A stretch of 26,196 bases of DNA from a virus (Duplodnaviria > Heunggongvirae > Uroviricota > Caudoviricetes): positions 1 to 26,196 of the IMG/VR virus record IMGVR_UViG_2874945390_000006, one strand, 5' to 3'. Positions within the stretch are counted from its first letter, which is position 1; every line of letters starts with the position of its first letter. The translations under genes were made by a program, and so were the position numbers. Below are positions 1 to 23,795 of the stretch, piece after piece. The notes beneath the pieces are model-generated. The model saw only the letters and a program-made list of their open reading frames with translations. It had not been told where the DNA came from and ran no database searches.

Positions 1-847
1 CTACGATAACCGCGCATTCAACATGGCTATCTGTTCGTCGTTCATGTCATCAATCCACATACCGTAAATTTCATACACCATTTGCGCAGTTTCATGCCCC
101 ATCTGGCTGGCTATAAATGCCGGGTTCGCTCCTGCCGTCAACAGCCAGCAGGCAAAAGTATGTCGCGTATGGTACGGATTACGGCGGCGAATACCAGCAC
201 GTTTTACTGCTGCATTCCATCTTGCACCCAAACTGCTTACCGAGTAATAAGGTTTCTGTTTTTCGTTACACACCCTGGGCATGAAAACAAAATGCAGTTT
301 TTGCTTTTCAGTTCTGCCGTACTCCCGATGATAAAAAGTGATTTCGCTTTTGCGATGATGCCCGGTCAGTTTGTATTGCACCTTCAGTGCTTCAAGAGCC
401 GGCTGCAGTAATGTTACCGTCCGGATCCCGGCATTTGTTTTTGGGGGACCGAACATATCAAGTATCGTCAGGTTTCTTCTGACATTCACAATTCCCTTCT
501 CGAAATCCACATCCTCCCACGCCAGAGCTGCCAGTTCCCCGTGACGAAGCCCGGAGTAAACGGCAAATTTCCACAAGTTTTGGCTCTGTCCTTTTTCACT
601 TTCCATTAATGCATTGAATTCTGTTTTAGATAACGGGTCAGGCTTTATTCTGTTTCGCTGTAATTTTTTTACTCCTTCAAATGGTTTGGTTGATATAAAT
701 CCCGACTGATACGCAAAACGTAACAACGAACAGAGCAGGGCGATATAGTTATCAACTGTGCGCACGGTTCTTCCTTTTTTGTTGGATCTTGGATTATCTA
801 GGTAAAGCGTTTCTCCATGCAGCAGTTCATTCCGGTAGTTTAAGATA
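1..847 (-). pseudogene. Phage tyrosine integrase (site-specific recombinase), C-terminal catalytic part present, 5' end cut by the IS911 left end
   Basis: Minus-strand ORF ending at stop codon 1-3; contains box I Arg (VYSGLRHGELAALAWEDVDF) and C-terminal HTRHTFACWLL...Y motifs of tyrosine recombinases. Reading frame runs into the IS911 inverted repeat at 848; the track's start at 873 is a GTG inside the IS. Only about 100 residues precede box I, so the N-terminal arm-binding region looks absent. Confidence 0.7.
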
Positions 848-919
848 TGAAGTGGCACACTGAATTTGGCCACCTGAACAGAGGTGATATGCTCACCTCA
901 GAACAACACAGGTGCTCCA

Positions 920-2088
<1,169 letters not shown>

Positions 2089-2103
2089 CCACTTCAATCT
2101 GAC

Positions 2104-2212: not shown

Positions 2213-2959
2213 CTACTTAACAACCCTCGAATGGCTAACATTCGGACGCCAGCTCTCCCAGTTAAAATTCACCCAGCGCCCGCCGTTCATGACCATGCGA
2301 TCCATCACCCGCTCGCCGAGAAGTGTATTCATCGCTGCATGGTTAATATTTGTCAGCATCCCCACACCGCGTAACGATGCCGTCCGGCGATCAACAATCT
2401 GGTTCAGTACCACCTGCTCGTTTTTCGTATCCCGCTGCATGCCAATTTCATCCAGGACCAGCAGGTCAACACCACAAAGCTCCTGTAAAAATTTTTCACC
2501 GGATTTGCCGTTGTCGTAGCTCTCATGCAACACGCTCATGACATCGGACACGGTGACGATAATCACGCTACGCCCCTTCGCCATCAGCCGGTTGCCAATC
2601 GCGGCTGCAAGATGATTTTTTCCGGTGCCGGGCTTACCGCTGAACACAAAATTCGTACAGCCTGTCATCAGTTCGTCAGCTATGGATTTCGCCTGACTCA
2701 GTGCATGTCGCTGACCGTCGTTCTGCGCCCGGTAATTCGCAAACGAACACTTCCGGTGCAACGGCTGGATGCCGGAGCGGTTCAGGATTTTTTCCACCCG
2801 CAACTGACGATTCAGGCGGTTGATCTCCTCGCAACGTTTCTGGCCTTCAGCAAGTTGCCACTCGCGCCACTCCGCAACCGTTCTGAATGGGGCGGTTACA
2901 TGTGGTGGGGTCAGTCTGCGGATACGCTCCAGAACGCCTCCTGTCGCAATATTTTTCAT
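2213..2959 (-). CDS. DnaC-like replicative helicase loader (phage replication protein, AAA+ ATPase)
   Basis: 248 aa with Walker A FSGKPGTGKNHLAAAIG, Walker B DLLVLDEIG and the DnaC-like tail LGERVMDRM...FNWESWR; start overlaps the stop of the upstream initiator gene. Confidence 0.85.
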   Translation of the reverse strand: MKNIATGGVLERIRRLTPPHVTAPFRTVAEWREWQLAEGQKRCEEINRLNRQLRVEKILNRSGIQPLHRKCSFANYRAQNDGQRHALSQAKSIADELMTGCTNFVFSGKPGTGKNHLAAAIGNRLMAKGRSVIIVTVSDVMSVLHESYDNGKSGEKFLQELCGVDLLVLDEIGMQRDTKNEQVVLNQIVDRRTASLRGVGMLTNINHAAMNTLLGERVMDRMVMNGGRWVNFNWESWRPNVSHSRVVK

Positions 2960-2965
2960 GGTCTG

Positions 2966-4165
2966 TTACCCCCTGAAGCCTGGCGGGATCGCACTGTCCG
3001 GCAACGAGACGGTGTTAACCTGTCGGAGCAACGTCTCAGGCCGAACACCTTTCGGCGCGAACAGACCCTGGTATTCATTGGCGATGCTGTGTCGAATCAC
3101 CTGCTCAGGTGTAAAACCCTGCTGACGGAATTTTTCCAGTTCCCGTATCGCCCCGTTAGCGCCCTGCTCCGTTCGAATTGGTTTTCGCAATGCCTGCCTG
3201 AACTGGACCCACTCATGCCAGAGTGTTTCTGGCAACCAGTCGGGCAGATCAACTGACAACGGGTCAAATTTTTTCTGGCGAACAGCCCCACCGATAACCA
3301 GAATTCCCTGCTCGGTGTGCCTTGCGATATCACTGCGCCGCAAGACACATATCCCGGTTTCAACAGCACCGATTTTGAGCAGTGATTTCTGTCGCGGAGA
3401 ATTTCGGTCAAGCTCGATCCCACACCGGACACCGTTCCTGTCAGTCACGACGATATCAATCCGCCCTCCGCAACCGTCACCACGCTCTGGCACCGGATAC
3501 TCACGACAGACATCCAGGCCAGCAGCCTGCAACGCAACCACCGCAGAATTACAAAATTCCGCTGCAGTACCGCCAGATAATCTCCCCTCAAGCACTCCAG
3601 CCACAAAATCCCGAAACTCCCTTCCGGAAGGGAAGGGTTTGGGATGGGTTAGATCTGTTTTTAGAGCTTTATCTGTATCTTTATTAGTTGCCTTTGTGTT
3701 GGCATCATGTTCGAACACCACTCCAACATCTGTTTGAACACCTGTTAAATTTCTCTCTTGTTTTGTTTGAACATCTGCTTCCTTTCTGCTTCTTCTGGCC
3801 TGAACAGATGCTTTTCCTGCGGCTGATTTTTTGGTTAATTTTTCTCTGACAGATGCCAGATCTTCCTCAATCCGAAGATGCATCCATTCGTCGCCGTTAT
3901 CACAAAAAAACTCCCGCAAGGATGGTTCAACATCAACCCATCGCTCGTTAGTCAGACGGGCAATTTTTGCCAACCTGTTTTTGGGTATTGGCTTTCCTGT
4001 TTGCCAGTAATTGAACATCAGCAACAAATACGCGCCGTGCTCCTCTGCTGACAAATGCATGGTGTCAGCCAGGTAATCAGCTATGTACAGTTGCATGTAT
4101 GGTAATGCGGCCATAATTGCCCCGTATGATGCTGCCCGGTTGCTTAGAATAAGCACAAACAGCAT
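2966..4165 (-). CDS. Phage replication initiation protein, YdaU/DUF1376-like N-terminus with additional central and C-terminal domains
   Basis: N-terminal region MAALPYMQLYIADYLADTMHLSAEEHGAYLLLMFNYW resembles DUF1376; sits immediately upstream of and translationally coupled to the DnaC-like gene. True start may be the internal ATG at 4114. Central segment GRIDIVVTDRNGVRCGIELD is of unknown function. Confidence 0.55.
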   Translation of the reverse strand: MLFVLILSNRAASYGAIMAALPYMQLYIADYLADTMHLSAEEHGAYLLLMFNYWQTGKPIPKNRLAKIARLTNERWVDVEPSLREFFCDNGDEWMHLRIEEDLASVREKLTKKSAAGKASVQARRSRKEADVQTKQERNLTGVQTDVGVVFEHDANTKATNKDTDKALKTDLTHPKPFPSGREFRDFVAGVLEGRLSGGTAAEFCNSAVVALQAAGLDVCREYPVPERGDGCGGRIDIVVTDRNGVRCGIELDRNSPRQKSLLKIGAVETGICVLRRSDIARHTEQGILVIGGAVRQKKFDPLSVDLPDWLPETLWHEWVQFRQALRKPIRTEQGANGAIRELEKFRQQGFTPEQVIRHSIANEYQGLFAPKGVRPETLLRQVNTVSLPDSAIPPGFRG

Positions 4166-4273
4166 GGAAACTTTTGCTTAATGAACAATGACAGAATCGT
4201 CGGAAGACCTGAGGTAGCCTGAGTTTAACGGACACTCCTTCCTGAAATAGAATGGCATCAGAAGGAGCTAATA

Positions 4274-4576
4274 ATGAGCAGAAAAACCCAACGTTACTCT
4301 AAAGAGTTCAAAGCCGAAGCTGTCAGAACGGTTCTTGAAAATCAACTTTCGATCAGTGAAGGCGCTTCCCGATTATCCCTTCCTGAAGGCACTTTAGGAC
4401 AATGGGTTACCGCCGCCAGAAAAGGGCTCGGTACTCCTGGTTCCCGCACGGTGGCTGAACTGGAATCTGAAATTCTGCAACTGCGTAAGGCGTTAAATGA
4501 AGCTCGCCTTGAGCGAGATATATTAAAAAAAGCAACAGCGTATTTTGCACAGGAGTCGCTGAAAAATACGCGTTAA
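4274..4576 (+). CDS. IS600 OrfA
   Basis: 100-aa HTH protein; A7 run at 4525-4531 is the likely -1 frameshift site into orfB. Confidence 0.85.
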   Translation: MSRKTQRYSKEFKAEAVRTVLENQLSISEGASRLSLPEGTLGQWVTAARKGLGTPGSRTVAELESEILQLRKALNEARLERDILKKATAYFAQESLKNTR

Positions 4577-4611
4577 TCGAACAATGGCGACAACAATTTC
4601 CCATTGAAGCG

Positions 4612-5430
4612 ATGTGTCAGGTATTTGGTGTATCCAGGAGCGGTTATTACAACTGGGTACAGCATGAACCCTCAGACAGAAAACAAAGTGATGAGCGGCT
4701 AAAACTGGAGATTAAGGTGGCACATATCTGCACTCGCGAAACATATGGAACCCGGCGGCTCCAGACGGAGCTGGCAGAGAATGGCATCATCGTTGGTCGT
4801 GACCGACTGGCACGTCTTCGTAAGGAGCTAAGGCTACGCTGTAAGCAGAAACGCAAGTTCAGAGCGACTACGAACCCGAACCACAATCTGCCAGTTGCGC
4901 CAAATCTGCTGAACCAGACGTTCGCTCCTACAGAACCAAATCAGGTCTGGGTGGCGGACCTGACGTATGTTGCCACACAGGAGGGATGGTTGTACCTCGC
5001 TGGCATCAAAGATGTTTATACGTGCGAAATTGTCGGCTACGCCATGGGAGAGCGCATGACAAAAGAGCTGACAGGTAAAGCCCTGTTTATGGCGCTCAGG
5101 AGCCAGCGCCCACCTGCCGGGCTAATCCACCACTCTGATCGAGGTTCACAGTACTGCGCATACGATTACCGGGTCATACAGGAGCAGTTTGGTCTGAAAA
5201 CATCAATGTCGCGTAAAGGTAACTGTTACGACAACACTCCGATGGAAAGCTTCTGGGGAACGCTGAAAAATGAGAGCCTGAGCCACTATCGTTTTAATAA
5301 CCGGGATGAAGCCATCTCAGTAATACGGGAATACATTGAGATTTTCTACAATCGTCAGCGTCGTCACTCTCGTCTGGGGAATATCTCCCCGGCAGCCTTC
5401 AGGGAAAAATATCATCAGATGGCTGCTTAA
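4612..5430 (+). CDS. IS600 OrfB (DDE transposase catalytic part)
   Basis: 272-aa ORF in the -1 frame; that frame is open back to the A7 run, consistent with an OrfAB fusion. Confidence 0.85.
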   Translation: MCQVFGVSRSGYYNWVQHEPSDRKQSDERLKLEIKVAHICTRETYGTRRLQTELAENGIIVGRDRLARLRKELRLRCKQKRKFRATTNPNHNLPVAPNLLNQTFAPTEPNQVWVADLTYVATQEGWLYLAGIKDVYTCEIVGYAMGERMTKELTGKALFMALRSQRPPAGLIHHSDRGSQYCAYDYRVIQEQFGLKTSMSRKGNCYDNTPMESFWGTLKNESLSHYRFNNRDEAISVIREYIEIFYNRQRRHSRLGNISPAAFREKYHQMAA

Positions 5431-5473
5431 AAAAAGAACAAATGGTAGTGTCCGCTATTGCCAGTACACCTCA

Positions 5474-6762
5474 CTCTGGCCTGCTCGCTTTGTCTCTTCA
5501 ACAAAGAAATGGTTATCGGTTTCGGCTCCCGTAAAGAGGAATACGTCGACAGCACCGGTGACCCGAAAGCATTGTTCTGGAAGGCGCGCAAGTTCGTGGA
5601 AACACTACCTGTAGAGTTTCGCGGTTCGTGGAGCGAGAAGAAGCATGCGCCATATATGCGTGTTGAGTTTCCTGAAACTGGCGCGGTTATCAAAGGTGAG
5701 GCTGGCGATAATATCGGTCGTGGTGACCGTACGACCCTTTATTTTGTGGATGAGGCTGCTTTTCTCCAGCGACCATTACTTATTGATGCCGCGCTTTCTC
5801 AGACAACCCGACGTCGTATCGATCTCTCATCGGTTAACGGCATGAACAACCCCTTCGCACAGAAGCGGCACAGTGGAAAAATCCCGGTGTTTACGTTTCA
5901 CTGGCGTAGCGATCCGCGTAAAGACGATGAGTGGTATCACAAGGAGTGCGAGAAAATTGATAACCCAGTCATCGTTGCCCAGGAACTGGATCTTAATTAC
6001 CAGGCATCAGCAGAAGGCATCCTGATCCCCTCAGAATGGGTACAGGCTGCGGTTGATGCACATATCAGACTGGGCATTCAGCCCGGCGGGCAACGGCTTG
6101 GTGCAATGGATGTCGCCGACGAAGGGCGGGATAAAAACGCCTGTTCGCTCCGTTATGGCATCCTGCTGAATGACGTACAGGAGTGGTCAGGTAAGGGGAG
6201 TGACATCTATGACTCTGTGGTTAAGGTTTTTGGTCTGTGCGATGACTTTGGTGCCGATGAGTTTCGCTTTGATGAGGACGGATTGGGTGCTGGCGTTCGT
6301 GGTGATGCGCGCGCTATCAACGAACTGCGTGAAGCGGAGGGCATCTGTCAAATCACCGCCACTCCATTCCGGGGCAGCGGGAGCGTGTTTCATCCTGAAA
6401 ATGAAGCTGTTCCCGGTGATAATGGTAAACCGGCTCGTCTGAATAAGGACTTTTTTGTCAATGCCAAAGCCCAGGGGTGGTGGCATCTTCGCAAATTATT
6501 CCGCAATACATTTCGTGCACTACAGGGTATGGAGTATGACCCGGATGAGATTATTTCCATCAGCAGCACAATGGAAAATAAAGACCGGCTGTTGATGGAG
6601 CTGTCACAACCTACCTGGTCAAAAAATGCCACCGGAAAAATTCTTGTGGATAAGCAACCTGACGGAACGAAATCTCCAAACCTGGCTGATTCTGTGATGA
6701 TTGCTTATGCCCCGATGGAAATGCCCATCGTAATTTCTGATGACTTTATGGAGTGGATCTGA
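5474..6762 (+). pseudogene. Terminase large subunit, 5'-truncated (ATPase Walker A region missing) at the IS600 copy 1 right end
   Basis: Frame is open from the IS boundary; Walker B-like [10 protein letters not shown] is present but no Walker A GxxxxGK[ST] precedes it. Position immediately upstream of the portal gene with a TGATG stop/start overlap. Confidence 0.7.
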
Positions 6763-8303
6763 TGTGGCCGTTTAAACGAAAAGAACCGTCAGCGCCGGCG
6801 GTACCGGACAAACAACCTGAACCACAGCCACCGGAAATTAACGATGAGGTGATCGCTTCCGTCCGGCAGAAACCACGGAGGGAGTTTGTTCGCTATGAGC
6901 CACCACCGGGCGTTATCCCGGCACCGGTTCGCGATGCTGTGCTGGCAATGGATGCAATACCGTATGACACCCTGAACAGTCATTATCCTGATTTTGTTTA
7001 TGGTGGTTTCCCGGGCTATCCGTATCTGGCACTTCAGGCGCAGTTACCGGAGTACCGGCGTATGGTCAGTGTGCTTGCCGAGGAGATGACCCGTAAGTGG
7101 ATAAAGGTTAAGGCGGTCGGAGAAGGGGACGACAGCCACGCGTCACGCATAGCGCAGCTTACTGACGCACTGGAGCACTATAACGTACAGGACGTTTTCA
7201 GACTGGCGATTGAGCACGACGGCTTTTTCGGGCGAGGGCAGATTTATATTGATGTGCGTTCGCCATCGGGTATATCTGCCTGGACTGACCCGGCGGAGCT
7301 GGGATCCGGACTGTTTATTTCCGACAAAAAAATCCCGAAAGGTTCCCTGCTGGGGCTTCGTGTTATTGAACCCGTCTGGACGTATCCGGGTATATATAAC
7401 GCGGATAATCTGCTGAGTGATGATTTTTACCGTCCGTCCGAATGGTACGTAATGGGAAAAACGGTTCACGCCAGCCGCATGATTGATCTGATCTCCCGTC
7501 CGGTTCCGGACATGCTGAAGCCGGCCTACAACTTTGGCGGCCTGTCACTGGTTCAGATTGCTGAGCCTTATGTTGATAACTGGCTGCGAACACGCGACAG
7601 CGTGGGCGATATGCTGCATTCGTTTTCGCTGAGCGGGATTAAGACGGATATGACACAGGTATTAAGTGGTAAAAGGGACCCGAATTACGCAAAACGCGCG
7701 GAGTTGTTTAACCGTACCCGTGATAACCGCGGGCTGCTGATGCTGGACAAGACGAACGAAGAGTTTTTCCAGTTCAACACTCCCCTGAGCGGCCTCGACA
7801 CCCTTCAGGCGCAGGCACAGGAACACATGTTCTTTGTCAGTGCCATACCGTCCGTAAAATTCGCCGGGCTGAGCCCAACGGGACTGAATGCGTCGAGTGA
7901 GGGTGAAATCCGGGTGTTTTACGACACCATTGCTGCACTTGCCACCCGTCTTCTGAAGAAACCGCTGAAAAAGGTGCTGGATATTATCCAGTTGTCTGAG
8001 TTCGGCGATATCGATCCTGATATCACGTTTGAATTTGAACCCCTGCATGAGCTGACGCGCGAGCAACTGGCGAATATCCGTAAAACTGAGGCGGAAACGG
8101 ATCAGATTTATGAGAGCACCGGAGCAGTGACCAATAACGAAGTACGCGAACGGCTGGCGACTGCGCAGGACAGCCCGTACAGCGGTATTGACCTGAGCGG
8201 GGACATCGAAATTGACGACACTGAAATTGACAACACCGAAGAAAATCCGCCGCAAGGCCCGAATGCAGACCCTGAGGCGGATTTCACCCAACGCGGGGAT
8301 TGA
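6762..8303 (+). CDS. Phage portal protein
   Basis: About 513 aa, directly after the terminase (ATG 6762 overlaps terminase TGA 6760-6762, RBS GGAGTGG upstream), with the acidic C-terminal tail typical of portals ([14 protein letters not shown]...). Assigned by position, size and composition. Confidence 0.6.
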
Positions 8304-12246: not shown

Positions 12247-13278
12247 ATGGGTACGGTGACGTTTGACTGTCGGATGTTTGTCAGTCTGTACCCGGAGTTT
12301 TCCACGGTGACACCGGAGCTACTGACGGCGGTGTTTAACCAGGCGACCGCGTTGTACCTGGATAACACGGACGACAGTCCGGTTACCGACCTGAAGGAGC
12401 GGGAACAGCTTCTGTTCCTGCTGGTTGCGCATCTGTGCGCATTGCGGGGGCTGGGAAACGGGAGAGACGGGCAGGCTGGTCTGGTGGGGCGTATCACCAG
12501 TGCGTCGGAAGGTTCTGTATCGGTATCGGTGGATAATAGCGGCAGTAATGATGCGTCGTGGTGGTATCTCCAGACCCCCTGGGGTGCTGACTACTGGCAG
12601 GCGACAGCGCCATACCGCTCAATGCAGTATCATTCCGGGGGGCACCTTCGCGATATCCGGGGCATTATTACCGGGGATACGGGAGGGGCGTCGATGGTAA
12701 ATAAAGTCACAGGTGGCAAACAGTTCCGGCAGACGCTGAAACAGGTTGCCGCGAACCTTTCATTGGGTAAAAAACTCAAAGTGGGTTTTCTTGAGGGAGC
12801 AACTTACCCTGACGGTACGTCAGTGGCTTATATTGCCGCAGTTCAGGAGTTTGGCGGAAGAGCGGTCATACCCGCCCGTGAGCAGACGCTCCACTTTCGC
12901 TATAACGAAAAAACGGGAGAAACCGGGCACCGCTTTGTCAAAGCCGGTAAAGGGAATTTTGTTCAGGATGTGGTTATTCCTGAGCACACGGTCACCATTC
13001 CCCCCCGTCCGTTCTTCCGTAAGATGATCGAACATAAAAGTCCCGAATGGGGCGAAAAAATGGCGACCTTATTACGGGCGAATGATTTTGATACTGCGAC
13101 CGCTCTGGTGTGTATGGGAGAACATATCAAAGGGCAGTTGCAGATGTCTGTTCGCGACTGGGAAAGTCCGCCCAACGCTGCATCCACTGCCCGGCAAAAG
13201 GGTTTTAACAACCCGCTTATTGAAACCGGACATATGATGGACAGCGTTGATTATTCTGTAGACGGGGGCAAAAAATGA
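12247..13278 (+). CDS. Head-tail connector-like protein (DUF4054-like N-terminal region fused to an HK97 gp10-like C-terminal region)
   Basis: 343 aa; N-terminal [38 protein letters not shown]... resembles DUF4054; C-terminal part (...[36 protein letters not shown]...) resembles gp10-family tail-completion proteins; Gly-rich linker between them. Confidence 0.4.
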
Positions 13279-16779: not shown

Positions 16780-16822
16780 TGAGGTGTACTGGCAATAGCG
16801 GACACTACCATTTGTTCTTTTT

Positions 16823-17641
16823 TTAAGCAGCCATCTGATGATATTTTTCCCTGAAGGCTGCCGGGGAGATATTCCCCAGACGAGAGTGACGACGCTGACG
16901 ATTGTAGAAAATCTCAATGTATTCCCGTATTACTGAGATGGCTTCATCCCGGTTATTAAAACGATAGTGGCTCAGGCTCTCATTTTTCAGCGTTCCCCAG
17001 AAGCTTTCCATCGGAGCGTTGTCGTAACAGTTACCTTTACGCGACATTGATGTTTTCAGACCAAACTGCTCCTGTATGACCCGGTAATCGTATGCGCAGT
17101 ACTGTGAACCTCGATCAGAGTGGTGGATTAGCCCGGCAGGTGGGCGCTGGCTCCTGAGCGCCATAAACAGGGCTTTACCTGTCAGCTCTTTTGTCATGCG
17201 CTCTCCCATGGCGTAGCCGACAATTTCGCACGTATAAACATCTTTGATGCCAGCGAGGTACAACCATCCCTCCTGTGTGGCAACATACGTCAGGTCCGCC
17301 ACCCAGACCTGATTTGGTGCTGTAGGAGCGAACGTCTGGTTCAGCAGATTTGGCGCAACTGGCAGATTGTGGTTCGGGTTCGTAGTCGCTCTGAACTTGC
17401 GTTTCTGCTTACAGCGTAGCCTTAGCTCCTTACGAAGACGTGCCAGTCGGTCACGACCAACGATGATGCCATTCTCTGCCAGCTCCGTCTGGAGCCGCCG
17501 GGTTCCATATGTTTCGCGAGTGCGGATATGTGCCACCTTAATCTCCAGTTTTAGCCGCTCATCACTTTGTTTTCTGTCTGAGGGTTCATGCTGTACCCAG
17601 TTGTAATAACCGCTCCTGGATACACCAAATACCTGACACAT
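16823..17641 (-). CDS. IS600 OrfB (transposase catalytic part)
   Basis: 272 aa, near-identical to the copy 1 OrfB (I/R, E/A and T/A differences). Confidence 0.85.
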   Translation of the reverse strand: MCQVFGVSRSGYYNWVQHEPSDRKQSDERLKLEIKVAHIRTRETYGTRRLQTELAENGIIVGRDRLARLRKELRLRCKQKRKFRATTNPNHNLPVAPNLLNQTFAPTAPNQVWVADLTYVATQEGWLYLAGIKDVYTCEIVGYAMGERMTKELTGKALFMALRSQRPPAGLIHHSDRGSQYCAYDYRVIQEQFGLKTSMSRKGNCYDNAPMESFWGTLKNESLSHYRFNNRDEAISVIREYIEIFYNRQRRHSRLGNISPAAFREKYHQMAA

Positions 17642-17676
17642 CGCTTCAACAGGGAATTGTTGTCGCCATTGTTCGA

Positions 17677-17979
17677 CTAACGCGTATTTTTCAGCGACTC
17701 CTGTGCAAAATACGCTGTTGCTTTTTTTAATATATCTCGCTCAAGGCGAGCTTCATTTAACGCCTTACGCAGTTGCAGAATTTCAGATTCCAGTTCAGCC
17801 ACCGTGCGGGAACCAGGAGTACCGAGCCCTTTTCTGGCGGCGGTAACCCATTGTCCTAAAGTGCCTTCAGGAAGGGATAATCGGGAAGCGCCTTCACTGA
17901 TCGAAAGTTGATTTTCAAGAACCGTTCTGACAGCTTCGGCTTTGAACTCTTTAGAGTAACGTTGGGTTTTTCTGCTCAT
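17677..17979 (-). CDS. IS600 OrfA
   Basis: 100 aa, identical to the copy 1 OrfA; T7 run 17722-17728 is the reverse complement of the slippery A7. Confidence 0.85.
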   Translation of the reverse strand: MSRKTQRYSKEFKAEAVRTVLENQLSISEGASRLSLPEGTLGQWVTAARKGLGTPGSRTVAELESEILQLRKALNEARLERDILKKATAYFAQESLKNTR

Positions 17980-18043
17980 TATTAGCTCCTTCTGATGCCA
18001 TTCTATTTCAGGAAGGAGTGTCCGTTAAACTCAGGCTACCTCA

Positions 18044-20430: not shown

Positions 20431-20512
20431 GTAAGCGCCCCATCAGCGACGTCTTGTGAAAATTGTCCTGTCTGGCAACAATCGCGCCCATCTATATAGA
20501 TGGACACGAACG

Positions 20513-21187
20513 ATGAATTCCCAGACAAAAAAAGATATTCCCTGCTTCCGTTCTTATTTGCCTGATGCCCTGCGTTTAAGATTTGAAGATAAACTGACCA
20601 TCCGGGCCATCGCTCAGCGTCTGGGTCTCAGTCATTCCACAATACATACGCTTTTTCAGCGATTTCTTGCATCCGGTATCGCATGGCCATTGCCCGATTC
20701 AGTTTCATTCGCTCAACTTGACGCCATCCTTTATGCCAACAGAAAGAAGGAATTAACAGAGCCTCAAATCAGAGAAGGCTCATGGCGAAAAGAACGGCGA
20801 ACCAGCTATAGCCGTGAATTTAAGGTCCGTCTGGCTAAGCAGGCGTTACAGCCTGGGGCTGTTGTTGCCCGGATCGCCAGAGAACACGATATCAATAATA
20901 ACCTGCTGTTTAAATGGAAAAGCCAGTACGAGGACGGCTTACTGAGCGATGATGACATACAGGAATGCATGCCTGTCCCGGTGGCACTGACTGATACGCC
21001 GGAGCCGACCAGACCAGTTACAAATCCCTTCTGGCGTAACAAGCATGATGAGCGCCCTGAGGGGGCTCCCGGAAACGTCCCACGGTGCGAGCTGCATCTT
21101 AAATCAGGTGTGGTAAAACTGTTTGACCCTCTCACTCCGGAACTGTTACGGGCGCTAATCCGCGAAATGAAAGGGGGTATCCGATGA
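20513..21187 (+). CDS. IS66-family TnpA (Orf1, HTH accessory protein)
   Basis: Start at ATG 20513 (MNSQTKK...); contains ...RRTSYSREFKVRLAKQALQPGAVVARIAREHDINNNLLFKWKSQYEDG typical of IS66 Orf1. The track ORF begins at 20456, inside the inverted repeat. Confidence 0.7.
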   Translation: MNSQTKKDIPCFRSYLPDALRLRFEDKLTIRAIAQRLGLSHSTIHTLFQRFLASGIAWPLPDSVSFAQLDAILYANRKKELTEPQIREGSWRKERRTSYSREFKVRLAKQALQPGAVVARIAREHDINNNLLFKWKSQYEDGLLSDDDIQECMPVPVALTDTPEPTRPVTNPFWRNKHDERPEGAPGNVPRCELHLKSGVVKLFDPLTPELLRALIREMKGGIR

Positions 21188-21531
21188 TAACGCTGCCGAC
21201 CGGTACCAAAATCTGGATCATCGCTGGCATCACAGATATGCGTTGTGGCTTCAATGGCCTGGCTTCGAAGGTGCAGAACACGCTGAAAGATGACCCGTTC
21301 TCCGGGCATATCTTCGTCTTCCGGGGCCGCAGTGGCAAAATGGTGAAAATACTGTGGGCCGATCGTGACGGGTTATGCCTGTTCGCCAAACGCCTGGAAC
21401 GGGGCCGCTTCGTCTGGCCGGTGACCCGGGAAGGGAAAGTGCACCTGACGCCAGCTCAGTTATCCATGCTACTGGAGGGGATCGCGTGGCAACATCCCAA
21501 ACGGACAGAACGGCCTGGCATCCGGATATAA
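21184..21531 (+). CDS. IS66-family TnpB (Orf2)
   Basis: 115 aa, MITLPTGTKIWIIAGITDMRCGFNGL...ILWADRDGLCLFAKRLERGRFVWP, the conserved IS66 Orf2 family. Confidence 0.85.
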   Translation: MITLPTGTKIWIIAGITDMRCGFNGLASKVQNTLKDDPFSGHIFVFRGRSGKMVKILWADRDGLCLFAKRLERGRFVWPVTREGKVHLTPAQLSMLLEGIAWQHPKRTERPGIRI

Positions 21532-21592
21532 CCCGTGATAAAACAAGGGAATGAACAATTAACTCCCCGATGATATTGAGCTGCTTAAAGCC

Positions 21593-23157
21593 ATGTTGCG
21601 TAAGCAACAGAGTCGGCTTCGACAGTATGCCTGTCAGGTCGCGGGCTATGAGCAGGAAATTGAACGGCTGAAAGCGCAACTCGACAGGTTGCGTCGTATG
21701 TTGTTCGGCCAGAGTTCAGAGAAAAAGCGTCATAAGCTTGAAAATCAGATCCGACAGGCAGAAAAACGACTGTCGGAACTGGAAAACCGGCTGAACACAG
21801 CCAGAAATCTTCTGGAAGATGCATCGTCAGTCACAGATTCACCTGACACCAGTCCCCCGTCAGAAAACCCGATCGCCAGTAAGCCTGAATCCCCGGGACG
21901 AAAATCTTCACGAAAACCGCTGCCGGCAGAACTTCCCCGGGAGACACATCGCCTTCTGCCTGCTGAAACCAGTTGCCCGGCCTGTGGAGGTGTTCTGAAA
22001 GAAATGGGGGAAACAATCTCAGAGCAACTGGATATCATTAATACCGCCTTTAAAGTTATCGAAACCATACGTCCCAAACTGGCCTGTAGCCGGTGTGATG
22101 TCATCGTTCAGGCACCACTTCCCCCTAAACCGATCGAACGCGGTTATGCCAGTGCAGGGTTACTTGCACGGATCCTGGTCAGCAAATATATGGAACATAT
22201 CCCTTTATATCGCCAGTCAGAAATATACGCGCGACAGGGCGTGGAGCTGAGCCGTAATACCATGGTGCGCTGGGTATCAGAAATGGCAGACAAACTCCGT
22301 CCTCTGTATATAGCGCTGAATGACTATGTTCTTGAGGCAGGAAAGGTGCACGCAGATGGCACTCCGGTGAAAGTACTGGCCCCGGGGAACGGAAAGACGA
22401 AAACGGGTCGTCTGTGGGTATACGTCAGGGATGATCGTAATGCGGGTTCATCCCTGCCGGCAGCCGTCTGGTTCGCGTATTCGGCAGATCGCAAAGGAGA
22501 ACATCCGCAGCTCCACCTGGCAAAGTATCAGGGCGTACTGCACTGCAGGCTGATGCCTATGCAGGTTATAACGTACTGTACGAAACGGGCCGGGTGAAGG
22601 AAGCCGGGTGCCTGGCCCACGCCCGCCGAAAAATCCATGACGAGGATGTGCGCCGTCCGACAGAAATGACTCAGGAAGCGCTCAGACGGATAGCAGAGTT
22701 ATACGACATAGAAGCGGAGATACGTGGCAGTCCGGCAGAGGAACGGCTTGCAGTCAGAAAAGCCAGAAGCGTCCAGTTGATGCAGTCGTTGTACGACTGG
22801 ATACAGTTGCAGAGGAAAACGCTGTCGAAACATGCGGAGATGGCGAAGGCGTTCGACTATATCCTGAATCACTGGAATGCGCTGAACGAGTTCTGTCGTG
22901 ACGGCTGGGTGGAAATAGACAACAACATCGGTGAAAACGCGTTACGATCGGTGGCGGTTGGAAGAAAAAATTATCTCTTTTTCGGCTCAGACAAGGGAGG
23001 AGAAAGTGCGGCGATCATCTACAGTCTGCTGGTCACCTGCAAACAGAACGAAGTGGAGCCGGAGGACTGGTTGCGCGAAGTGATCGAGAAGCTCAATGAC
23101 TGGCCGTCGAACCAAGTGCATGAACTGCTGCCCTGGAACTTCTCGTCTGTAAAATAA
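21593..23157 (+). pseudogene. IS66-family transposase TnpC (Orf3), disrupted by a 5-bp tandem duplication (CTGCA CTGCA at 22538-22547)
   Basis: Track ORFs 21593-22597 and 22594-23157 are two halves of one transposase (…CPACGG…HADGTPV…[12 protein letters not shown]… then …[13 protein letters not shown]…[13 protein letters not shown]…). Deleting 5 nt restores the conserved [32 protein letters not shown] stretch. Confidence 0.8.
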
Positions 23158-23189
23158 TCCTTACGCTACGTACTTCTCGGGGCGCTTAC

Positions 23190-23795
23190 ATTGGTACGAC
23201 GAATGCGTTAGGTGGAAGTTCAATCGTTTTAGGAGATAACGATACCGGGTTTAAACAAAATGGCGATGGTCTGCTTGATGTTTATGCGAATGGACAGCAT
23301 GTATTTCGTTTTCAGAATGGCGTGGCTATTGCTTTTAAGAATATTCAGGCCGGAACTGCCAGAAAATTCACGTTATCCAGCGCCAACAACTCCACGAAAA
23401 ATGCAGCGTTTTGTTTGTGGGGTAATCCATCCAGGCCTGTTGTTGCAGAGCTTGGTGATGATTCAGGCTGGCATTTTTTCAGCCAGAGAAACCCGGATAA
23501 CAGCATAGTGTTCACTGTTAACGGACAGGTAATTCCGTTAAATTACGGAAACTTCGATGCCCGCTATAAATATCGAACAGAGGGGGTACAGGATGTACGG
23601 TATGGCCATGAAATGTATTACAGCCCCGGCAGTAACACCGTTTCGTGGAGATTTTGCGCACCTTCGGGACACGGGCTGTCAGGGATGGCGATATCGGATA
23701 CCGGCCGTAACTCAGCGGATAACGTTGACGGTGTGTATTACCGACCACTGCAAAAACTGATTAATGGCACCTGGTATAACGTAGCGAGTATTTAA
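23190..23795 (+). pseudogene. 3' fragment of a side tail fibre gene (receptor-binding C-terminal region), 5' end lost at the IS66-family right end
   Basis: Frame is open from the IS boundary with no upstream start in phage sequence; ends ...YYRPLQKLINGTWYNVASI, resembling the C-terminus of lambdoid Stf proteins; a tail fibre assembly gene follows 3 bp later. Confidence 0.6.

Follow-up and report, generated by a model that had tools for sequence, protein, structure and literature searches.

A probable dead large terminase remnant joined to IS600 in a myovirus-type prophage at the Rac site of Shigella boydii

RESULTS

Truncation of terL at the right end of IS600

The stretch of DNA analyzed here, called the window in the following, comprises 26,196 nucleotides. 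Positions 5476 to 6762 of the window very probably represent a dead remnant of the large terminase gene (terL) of a myovirus-type prophage at the Rac site, for which we infer a history of IS600-mediated inversion and IS911-associated deletion. The remnant matches codons 112 to 539 plus the stop codon of the 539-aa TerL of Escherichia coli RMDEC364 with 99.6% identity, or five codon differences in 428 codons. An N-terminally truncated large terminase had been proposed in the initial annotation, which was made from the sequence alone, and this match bears it out. The number of missing residues, which had been left there to be counted against full-length terminases, is 111 according to the alignment to RMDEC364 TerL, corresponding to a loss of 333 nt. 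In RMDEC364, terL is an intact open reading frame of 1620 nt for 539 aa, preceded by a gene for a Terminase_2 small subunit and followed by a DUF1073 portal gene. A terL copy with at least 99% identity was present in eight E. coli genomes.

The positions of the features are listed in Table 1. When positions 5474 to 6762 were used as the query against phages and E. coli genomes, the homology to terminase began at position 5476 in every DNA match. The sequence at the breakpoint is GGA/CTGGCC in all intact terL copies. The intact gene reads ...GCGATCGGA/CTGGCC and the window ...ACACCTCA/CT/CTGGCC, with the slashes marking the borders. A break at the right end of IS600, as had been noticed initially, is thus located to the base, with IS600 ending at position 5473 and two orphan bases between this end and the homology to terL. 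One candidate source of the orphan CT, the IS600 copy within an IS66 element of CP026877.1, was rejected: the flank in this copy reads CCCTG and not CTCTG, and the apparent 5-base match was an end effect of BLAST.

Table 1. Positions of features in the window
Feature	Position	Strand	Remarks
intR 3' fragment (Rac-type integrase)	1..847	-	848 of 1236 nt kept; Pfam Phage_integrase; adjoins ttcA
IS911, 1249 bp	848..2096	+	rearrangement junction; 100% identical to copies annotated "IS3-like element IS911 family"
DUF977 gene 5' fragment, ~34 codons	2097..2212	-	cut by IS911; gene call with Pfam DUF977; inverted match to RMDEC332
ydaV-like gene, DnaC/IstB-type replication ATPase	2213..2959	-	Pfam IstB_IS21; inverted versus ancestral order
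ydaU-like gene, replication initiator (DUF1376)	2966..4165	-	Pfam DUF1376; E. coli annotation "YdaU family protein"; inverted
Spacer plus last ~32 nt of ydaT	4166..4209	-	cut by left end of IS600
IS600 copy (a), 1264 bp	4210..5473	+	orfA 4274-4576, orfB 4612-5430; Pfam HTH_Tnp_1, rve
Orphan dinucleotide CT	5474-5475	+	matches neither IS600 nor terL
terL remnant	5476..6762	+	putative Walker A lost; GRGDR, LYFVDE, nuclease domain kept; C224R
GRGDR	5716-5730	+	retained in terL remnant
Walker B plus catalytic Glu, LYFVDE	5737-5754	+	retained in terL remnant
C224R	5812-5814	+	substitution in terL remnant
Nuclease domain	~6022-6726	+	retained in terL remnant
Portal gene (Phage_portal_3 / DUF1073)	6753..8303	+	intact; overlaps terL stop; Pfam E = 1.7e-84
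Frameshift, head-morphogenesis gene	~8412		
Frameshift, DUF4054 gene	~12640		
Frameshift, neck-terminator gene	~13700		
IS600 copy (b)	16780..18043	-	simple insertion, codon 29 of tape-measure/lytic transglycosylase gene
Baseplate gene cut	20432		
IS66-family element	20456-23157		transposase itself split
Frameshift, tail-fibre-assembly gene	~24208		

The frame of the remnant is open back through 18 nt of the right end of IS600 to a TTG at position 5458, and the first ATG in this frame is at position 5509. It is also the frame of orfB of IS600, from which the remnant is separated by one TAA and 15 codons. This agreement, to be expected by chance in one of three cases, is treated as a coincidence.

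A natural start of full-length homologs near the boundary, named in the initial annotation as a possible refutation, does not agree with the lengths of the relatives. Among the best 120 of 6166 matches, almost all TerL relatives were 534 to 543 aa long, compared to the 428 codons of the remnant. Full-length relatives with 38% to 41% identity are present in isolated and viable phages, namely Pseudoalteromonas phage TW1, Vibrio phage 1.200.O, Pseudanabaena phage Pam3, and Rhizobium phage P106B, and their alignments begin at residues 6 to 13 of the query, so that none of them starts close to residue 112. Moreover, the gene order terS-terL-portal is not preserved in the window: the portal gene follows the remnant, and IS600 stands before it in the place of terS.

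Motifs and domains lost and retained

Pfam and NCBIfam gave no match to the terL remnant or to full-length TerL. PHROG 2 and PHROG 5989, both described as "terminase large subunit," matched TerL. Residues 294 to 528 form the C-terminal RNase-H-like nuclease domain and were similar to solved terminase nuclease domains, with E = 1.8e-30 for 8dkr and E = 4e-21 for Sf6 gp2. A profile search against the PDB gave E = 4e-38 for this domain, and hhalign assigned a probability of 99.8% to the alignment with Sf6 gp2; both cover essentially the nuclease domain only, plus the last ~30 residues ahead of it.

The N-terminal ASCE ATPase of terminases requires a Walker A motif, or P-loop, and the remnant begins at residue 112. 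In a regular-expression scan, the sole Walker-A-like pattern of the full TerL was KSREMGLS at residues 99 to 106, inside the missing part, and none was found in the remnant. Residues 97 to 107, with the pattern (hydrophobic)-E-K-x-R-[DE]-x-G-x-[ST]-W, are conserved in the relatives from TW1, Vibrio 1.200.O, Pam3, and P106B. The Walker A motif is LS-R162-QLGKT in T4 gp17 and KSA-R79-VGYS in lambda gpA (PMC6379665, Table 1). K99-S-R101-E-M-G104-L-S106 has the same S-R-x-x-G-x-[ST] register as T4 gp17, and it shares with lambda gpA a lysine that is shifted upstream. KSREMGLS is located ~100 residues ahead of LYFVD203-E204, a distance comparable with the spacing from R24 to E119 in Sf6 (PMC6379665, Table 1). 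The assignment of K99-S-R101-E-M-G104-L-S106 as the putative Walker A or P-loop of this TerL rests on motif, spacing, and conservation. In an AlphaFold2 model of a full-length homolog, built on a 23-sequence alignment, the nuclease domain was confident and residues 42 to 291 had a pLDDT below 50.

The Walker B motif plus the catalytic glutamate are present in the remnant as L199-Y-F-V-D203-E204, of which D203 and E204 are invariant in the aligned homologs. Eight residues ahead of Walker B is the invariant G192-R-G-D-R196, which we take to resemble the arginine-finger position of other terminases. The earlier observation that Walker B is present in the absence of a preceding Walker A can now be given a cause, with KSREMGLS being in the missing 111 codons. 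Only the first ~40% of the predicted ATPase domain is lost, and residues 112 to ~290 remain. Since the putative Walker A is in the lost part, a protein made from the remnant would not be able to bind or hydrolyze ATP to drive DNA into capsids and could not power DNA packaging.

The prophage site and the block missing upstream of terL

The window is 100% identical to positions ~777,555 to 803,750 of CP026836.1, which is a record of Shigella boydii (PMC12817139). The left flank in CP026836.1 is dgcM-zntB-dbpA-ttcA, then intR, and the right flank is sitDCBA-uspF-ompN-ydbK. The site between ttcA-intR and sitABCD-uspF is the Rac prophage site, and the same flanks, ttcA and intR to the left and uspF and ompN beyond the right end, were found in E. 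coli RMDEC332. The canonical Rac order, with intR and xis leftward, then cro, ydaT, ydaU, and ydaV rightward and the late genes, is not present in the window.

E. coli RMDEC332 contains a near-intact 47-kb prophage at the Rac site, and its intR and structural module are 99.9% and 99.7% identical, respectively, to those of the window. From the left, its order is intR, xisR, gam/recE, immunity genes, a cro-like gene, ydaT, replication genes, DUF977, hok, and DUF1367/1364/1133, followed by four tRNAs, holin, rrrD, lysis, a hypothetical gene, terS, terL, portal, and the head, tail, and fiber genes. The distance from nucleotide 848 of intR to codon 112 of terL is 21,754 bp in RMDEC332 compared to 4,627 bp in the window, in accordance with the large block upstream of the terminase that had been described as missing. 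The 21.75-kb stretch of RMDEC332 carries xis, immunity, and replication genes, a Q-like gene, tRNAs, lysis genes, and terS. Its 4.6-kb replacement in the window consists of IS911, an inverted 2.1-kb segment, and IS600(a). The window lacks the xis, immunity, Q-like, tRNA, lysis, and terS genes that are present in RMDEC332. The absence of terS, lysis genes, and a late regulator ahead of the terminase, as initially annotated, agrees with these results: only 44 bp plus IS600 separate the start codon of the replication gene at position 4165 from the remnant, and the list of open reading frames together with Pfam yielded no terS, lysis gene, or antiterminator in between.

The 5' third of intR is absent, with ~129 N-terminal codons missing. 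What remains is 99.9% identical to the annotated intR of EIEC-like E. coli, and the match stops at position 848. The Rac-site prophage of E. coli VL40 matches the 2.1-kb segment ydaT'-ydaU-ydaV-DUF977' with 99.76% identity; the match to ydaU and ydaT stops exactly at position 4209 of the window, and the intact ydaT continues with CGCCGCC. Relative to intR, this segment is inverted compared to both VL40 and RMDEC332. No single E. coli genome showed the ancestral combination of ydaUV with this structural module at the Rac site: the replication genes of RMDEC332 are different, and VL40 has a lambda-type head module.

Insertion sequences at the junctions

IS600(a) has the 1264 bp and the Pfam domains expected of IS600 and is 99.7% identical to an E. 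coli element annotated as "IS3-like element IS600 family"; both copies of the window are 99.6% to 99.7% identical to this element, and copy (a) is 99% identical to the inverted copy (b). IS600(a) lies between ACC and CTC and thus has no 3-bp target-site duplication, which does not count against copy (a) being IS600. IS911 also has no target-site duplication, with ATA on one side and ATC on the other. IS600(b) is flanked by the 3-bp duplication CAG/CAG, and its flanks are colinear with the intact prophage, overlapping by 3 bp. The missing duplication identifies IS600(a) as a rearrangement junction that arose by recombination or deletion. An inversion between IS600(a) and IS600(b) was rejected as its origin because copy (b), with its target duplication and colinear flanks, is a simple insertion.

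Rearrangement history

The initial annotation implied one simple deletion, which does not hold because the replication genes are turned around with respect to both the terminase and intR, so that an inversion plus deletions need to be considered. A single IS600-mediated adjacent deletion that removed the interval from the replication genes to codon 112 of terL would explain why IS600 borders on the replication module on one side and on the terL remnant on the other, why a target duplication is missing, and why the late genes are absent. It is nevertheless very unlikely. The genes ydaU, ydaV, and DUF977' are on the strand opposite to terL and inverted versus intR in comparison to two Rac-site reference prophages, and one step cannot invert a segment that is kept. 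Moreover, the region from the 5' part of intR through ydaT is also gone, and the segment ends at another insertion sequence, IS911.

The most economical history, inferred from the end state, would be an inversion plus an IS911-associated deletion, two events that would explain all junction orientations. Two IS600 copies may have inserted in opposite orientation into the 3' end of ydaT and into codon 111/112 of terL. Recombination between them would have inverted the interval of ~14 kb between ydaT and terL, placing ydaT'-ydaU-ydaV in reverse beside the 3' part of terL and leaving the 5' part of terL, terS, the lysis genes, and the rest reversed on the left. An IS911-associated deletion would then have removed everything from nucleotide 849 of intR through the inverted late region to codon 34 of DUF977. 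The end state of these steps would be IS911, the inverted DUF977'-ydaV-ydaU-ydaT', IS600, and the terL remnant, as in the window. The orphan CT is left unexplained by this history, and it is not predicted by an insertion of IS600 into terL with a 3-bp duplication.

Neither the 5,426 E. coli genomes nor the retrieved Shigella loci contained an intermediate state, and no complete genome among these 5,426 carried IS600 at the ydaT or terL site. The final junction was already present in all Shigella loci examined. A search with residues 1 to 111 of TerL gave many N-terminal fragments, none with the predicted reciprocal structure of codons 1 to 111 joined to IS600. The best match to the 111 residues, P0001 in CP026877.1, was rejected as the reciprocal product; it overlaps the remnant of the window and represents an independent event. 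Neither the reciprocal junction nor that of the window itself turned up when species-representative genomes were scanned for the exact patterns, so that this collection evidently does not contain these Shigella genomes.

Alternatively, IS600 copies of two prophages or of distant sites may have recombined, in which case the 5' part of terL, terS, and the lysis genes would be expected at another place in the genome, beside a further IS600. In several EIEC-like E. coli strains, ydaUV with intR and the 539-aa terL module reside in separate prophages ~0.8 to 1 Mb apart, Shigella genomes contain many IS600 copies, and 5' fragments of terL occur at other junctions in other Shigella genomes, such as P0001 in CP026877.1. 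Such an exchange is unlikely, however, when the borders are considered. Both outer borders are native to the Rac site, and the structural module is colinear with that of RMDEC332 up to the right border, with only the 2.1-kb internal piece out of order, which argues for a rearrangement internal to the prophage. In addition, no N-terminal fragment of ~111 aa with at least 98% identity was found among ~15 billion predicted proteins, a weak negative since annotation pipelines often skip pseudogene fragments.

Distribution of the junction in Shigella

The same junction, CT included, was present in 12 of the 12 Shigella loci examined and was identical in genomes of S. boydii and S. dysenteriae. These loci came from the megabase-scale chromosome records CP026836.1, PSSP01000001.1, CP026824.1, and CP027027.1, the 712-kb contig UYIS01000021.1, a short NCBI draft contig, and several SRA assemblies. 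A misjoining at the repeated IS600 during assembly needs to be considered because IS600 is highly repeated and short-read contigs break 31 to 64 nt upstream of the remnant. The four independent megabase-scale records and the 712-kb contig, all with the same junction plus CT, and independent SRA assemblies whose ends reach into the right end of IS600 make such an artifact hardly conceivable. The identity of the junction in all of these loci indicates that it is real and inherited. In sister genomes, IS30-like insertions were added into IS911 and IS600, and in UYIS01000021.1, the whole ydaUV segment was lost by recombination between two IS30-like copies.

Decay of the prophage

The lesions of the prophage were scored gene by gene in comparison to RMDEC332. 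Over 513 aa, the portal protein shares 99.4% of its residues with that of RMDEC332. Besides the frameshifts and the cut baseplate gene listed in Table 1, the genes for plug, hub, spike, sheath initiator, baseplate J, and DUF2612 and most of the fiber gene were lost by a baseplate-to-fiber deletion. Counting the lesion in terL, the prophage has at least ten inactivating lesions. The element lacks terS, the lysis cassette, the late antiterminator, the immunity region, and xis as well as the 5' third of intR and therefore appears, as far as its gene content tells, unable to excise, to lyse the cell, or to package DNA. In contrast to the decaying phage functions, the sitABCD iron/manganese transporter at the right end has stayed intact, as cargo genes usually do.

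Within the remnant, C224R affects a residue that is conserved in 22 of 22 aligned homologs, and a sister lineage, represented by a protein annotated in S. dysenteriae, adds R149C at an invariant arginine. This pattern would fit neutral decay, and the terL remnant may accordingly be regarded as decaying neutrally and without function.

The opposite reading would be that the remnant was kept in service of the host and is expressed by IS600 read-through from TTG 5458 or ATG 5509 as a TerL without Walker A but with an intact nuclease. The 428 codons are free of internal stops in each of the 12 loci, at least 36 contigs have a gene call for a 417-aa protein, and isolated terminase nuclease domains fold alone and were crystallized (8dkr, 5c10). 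Such a retained function would be highly unlikely. No promoter-like site was matched in a scan around the IS600-terL junction. The sole amino acid changes, C224R and R149C, are at family-conserved residues, the opposite of purifying selection; an open frame of 1.3 kb is unremarkable at a local rate of ~4 frameshifts per 15 kb; and half an ATPase domain is unlikely to fold. With similarly little probability, the beheaded TerL with its portal-interacting C terminus and nuclease might act as a dominant-negative packaging inhibitor, or as a free nuclease, against superinfecting phages with a related portal and be kept for this purpose in the clade of S. boydii and S. dysenteriae.

DISCUSSION

The terL remnant is an ordinary IS-mediated pseudogene in a decaying Shigella prophage and nothing categorically new. 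The 26-kb element is a permanently grounded prophage remnant, and the consequence of this is mainly one for annotation: the "bacteriophage protein" of 417 or 434 aa predicted in several Shigella genomes should be flagged as the product of a pseudogene. The shared junction with its CT is a clean synapomorphy, by which a subset of S. boydii and S. dysenteriae might be recognized as a lineage, and the series from CP026836 to PSSP01 and UYIS01 illustrates a stepwise IS-mediated erosion.

Comparison with known systems

The intact relatives of the remnant share with the large terminases T4 gp17, lambda gpA, Sf6 gp2, and P74-26 TerL an N-terminal ASCE ATPase with an arginine-containing Walker A motif, a Walker B motif of four hydrophobic residues followed by D-E, and a C-terminal RNase-H-like nuclease. 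The 539-aa TerL family differs from these proteins in that ~95 residues precede the P-loop and in that Leu105 stands in the position of the classical Walker lysine, with Lys99 upstream. The terL copy of the window, without residues 1 to 111, falls short of the ATPase of all of them. Compared to the nuclease-domain constructs in PDB 8dkr and in 5c10/5c12, the C-terminal domain of Sf6 gp2, the whole homologous domain (residues 294 to 528) is contained in the remnant. These constructs are engineered clean domains, however, whereas the remnant also carries ~180 residues of a beheaded ATPase domain.

The Rac prophage of E. coli K-12 occupies the same site, with ttcA-intR to the left and uspF-ompN to the right, and has the same integrase family and the ydaT, ydaU, and ydaV genes. 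The element in the window differs from it by an E217/Pa193-like myovirus head-tail module, the 539-aa TerL, sitABCD, the truncated intR, and the inverted ydaUV segment. K-12 Rac has presumably lost its head genes altogether.

Genome reduction in Shigella via the expansion of IS1, IS2, IS600, IS911, and IS30 is established. The window shares with the IS-driven formation of pseudogenes and decay of prophages in Shigella an IS breakpoint in a phage gene, junction insertion sequences without target duplications, and the accumulation of more IS insertions and IS-IS deletions in sister lineages. The only particular feature in comparison to this known process is the 2.1-kb replication segment inverted between IS911 and IS600.

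Junction between IS600 and the terminase gene

The right end of the first IS600 copy (...CCTCA) is precise at its junction with the remnant of terL, the gene for the large terminase, and an orphan dinucleotide CT at positions 5474-5475 of the window separates this end from the first terL base. The dinucleotide matches neither IS600 nor terL, forms no part of a 3-bp target duplication, and was conserved in all 12 of the 12 Shigella loci examined. A second damaged Shigella terL was present in CP026877.1 (locus L012, 8763-10483), where IS600 is positioned between terS and terL, and terL is cut further after residue ~133, leaving a 160-aa open reading frame (ORF) that starts inside the IS600 end. 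This damage is an event independent of the terL truncation in the window.

The IS600 orfB (4612-5430) and the terL remnant (5476-6762) share a reading frame, with only the TAA stop codon of orfB and 15 sense codons between them; the chance of such a coincidental agreement is one in three. No evidence was found for read-through from IS600 orfB into the terL remnant.

Other lesions and stepwise erosion

Further lesions and the prophage cargo are listed in the table below, with frameshifts called by comparison with the near-intact prophage of E. coli RMDEC332.

Lesions and cargo of the prophage (window positions unless a locus is given)
Feature	Position	Remark
intR (Rac integrase) fragment	1-847	~129 N-terminal codons lost to IS911
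IS911	848-2096	without target duplication
Frameshift	~8412	head-morphogenesis gene (Mu F-like)
Frameshift	~12640	DUF4054 gene
Frameshift	~13700	neck-terminator gene
Second IS600	16780-18043	inverted relative to first copy; simple insertion, CAG duplication
Frameshift	~24208	tail-fibre-assembly gene
sitABCD, intact	L031 12041-15490	iron/manganese transporter operon; CP026836.1, just right of window
sitABCD, intact	L032 2902-6351	E. coli RMDEC332

The N-terminal part of intR is lost, and the prophage element therefore appears unable to excise. The tape-measure/lytic transglycosylase gene is interrupted at codon 29 by the second IS600 copy. Head and tail genes spanning 11.3 kb lie between the two inverted IS600 copies, and no recombination between these copies has occurred. 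The frameshift in the DUF4054 gene fused two genes into a single 343-aa ORF (12247-13278). The baseplate gene breaks off after residue 151 at the start of the region 20432-23190. Where the genes for plug, hub, spike, sheath initiator, baseplate J, and DUF2612 and the greater part of the fibre gene would be expected, this region instead has an IS66-family element, which contains a tnpA-like gene, tnpB, and a transposase split into ORFs of 334 aa and 187 aa.

In sister Shigella genomes, IS30-like elements encoding a 383-aa HTH_38+rve transposase were inserted into both IS911 and the first IS600 copy (L021 = UYIS01000021.1, 7380-9025; L007, 1892-3114 and 7805-9025), and in one such genome everything between the two IS30-like copies was deleted, including ydaU and ydaV. 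Insertion followed by deletion between the copies represents a stepwise erosion series. The sitABCD operon is located at the right end of the prophage, flanked by tail-fibre genes and uspF, in S. boydii and in E. coli RMDEC332; this cargo is kept while the phage genes decay.

Mosaicism of the structural module

In E. coli RMDEC465 (locus L002, 9287-9826), an N-terminal fragment of the DUF1073 portal protein (179 aa), cut by IS4, carries the RefSeq name "anti-CBASS protein Acb1 family protein." This name is probably an artefact, because the full-length gene is named DUF1073 protein.

At least three different early regions precede the structural module with the 539-aa TerL: a Rac-site lambdoid region with a DnaB-type helicase, a lambdoid region carrying DUF977/ead genes, and a type encoding DNA polymerase A together with a DUF5906 primase. 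Conversely, the Rac-site prophage of E. coli VL40, which has the same ydaUV genes as the window, possesses a lambda-type head module. These combinations of structural module and early region (loci L013, L003, L004/L030, and L029) represent strong modular mosaicism.
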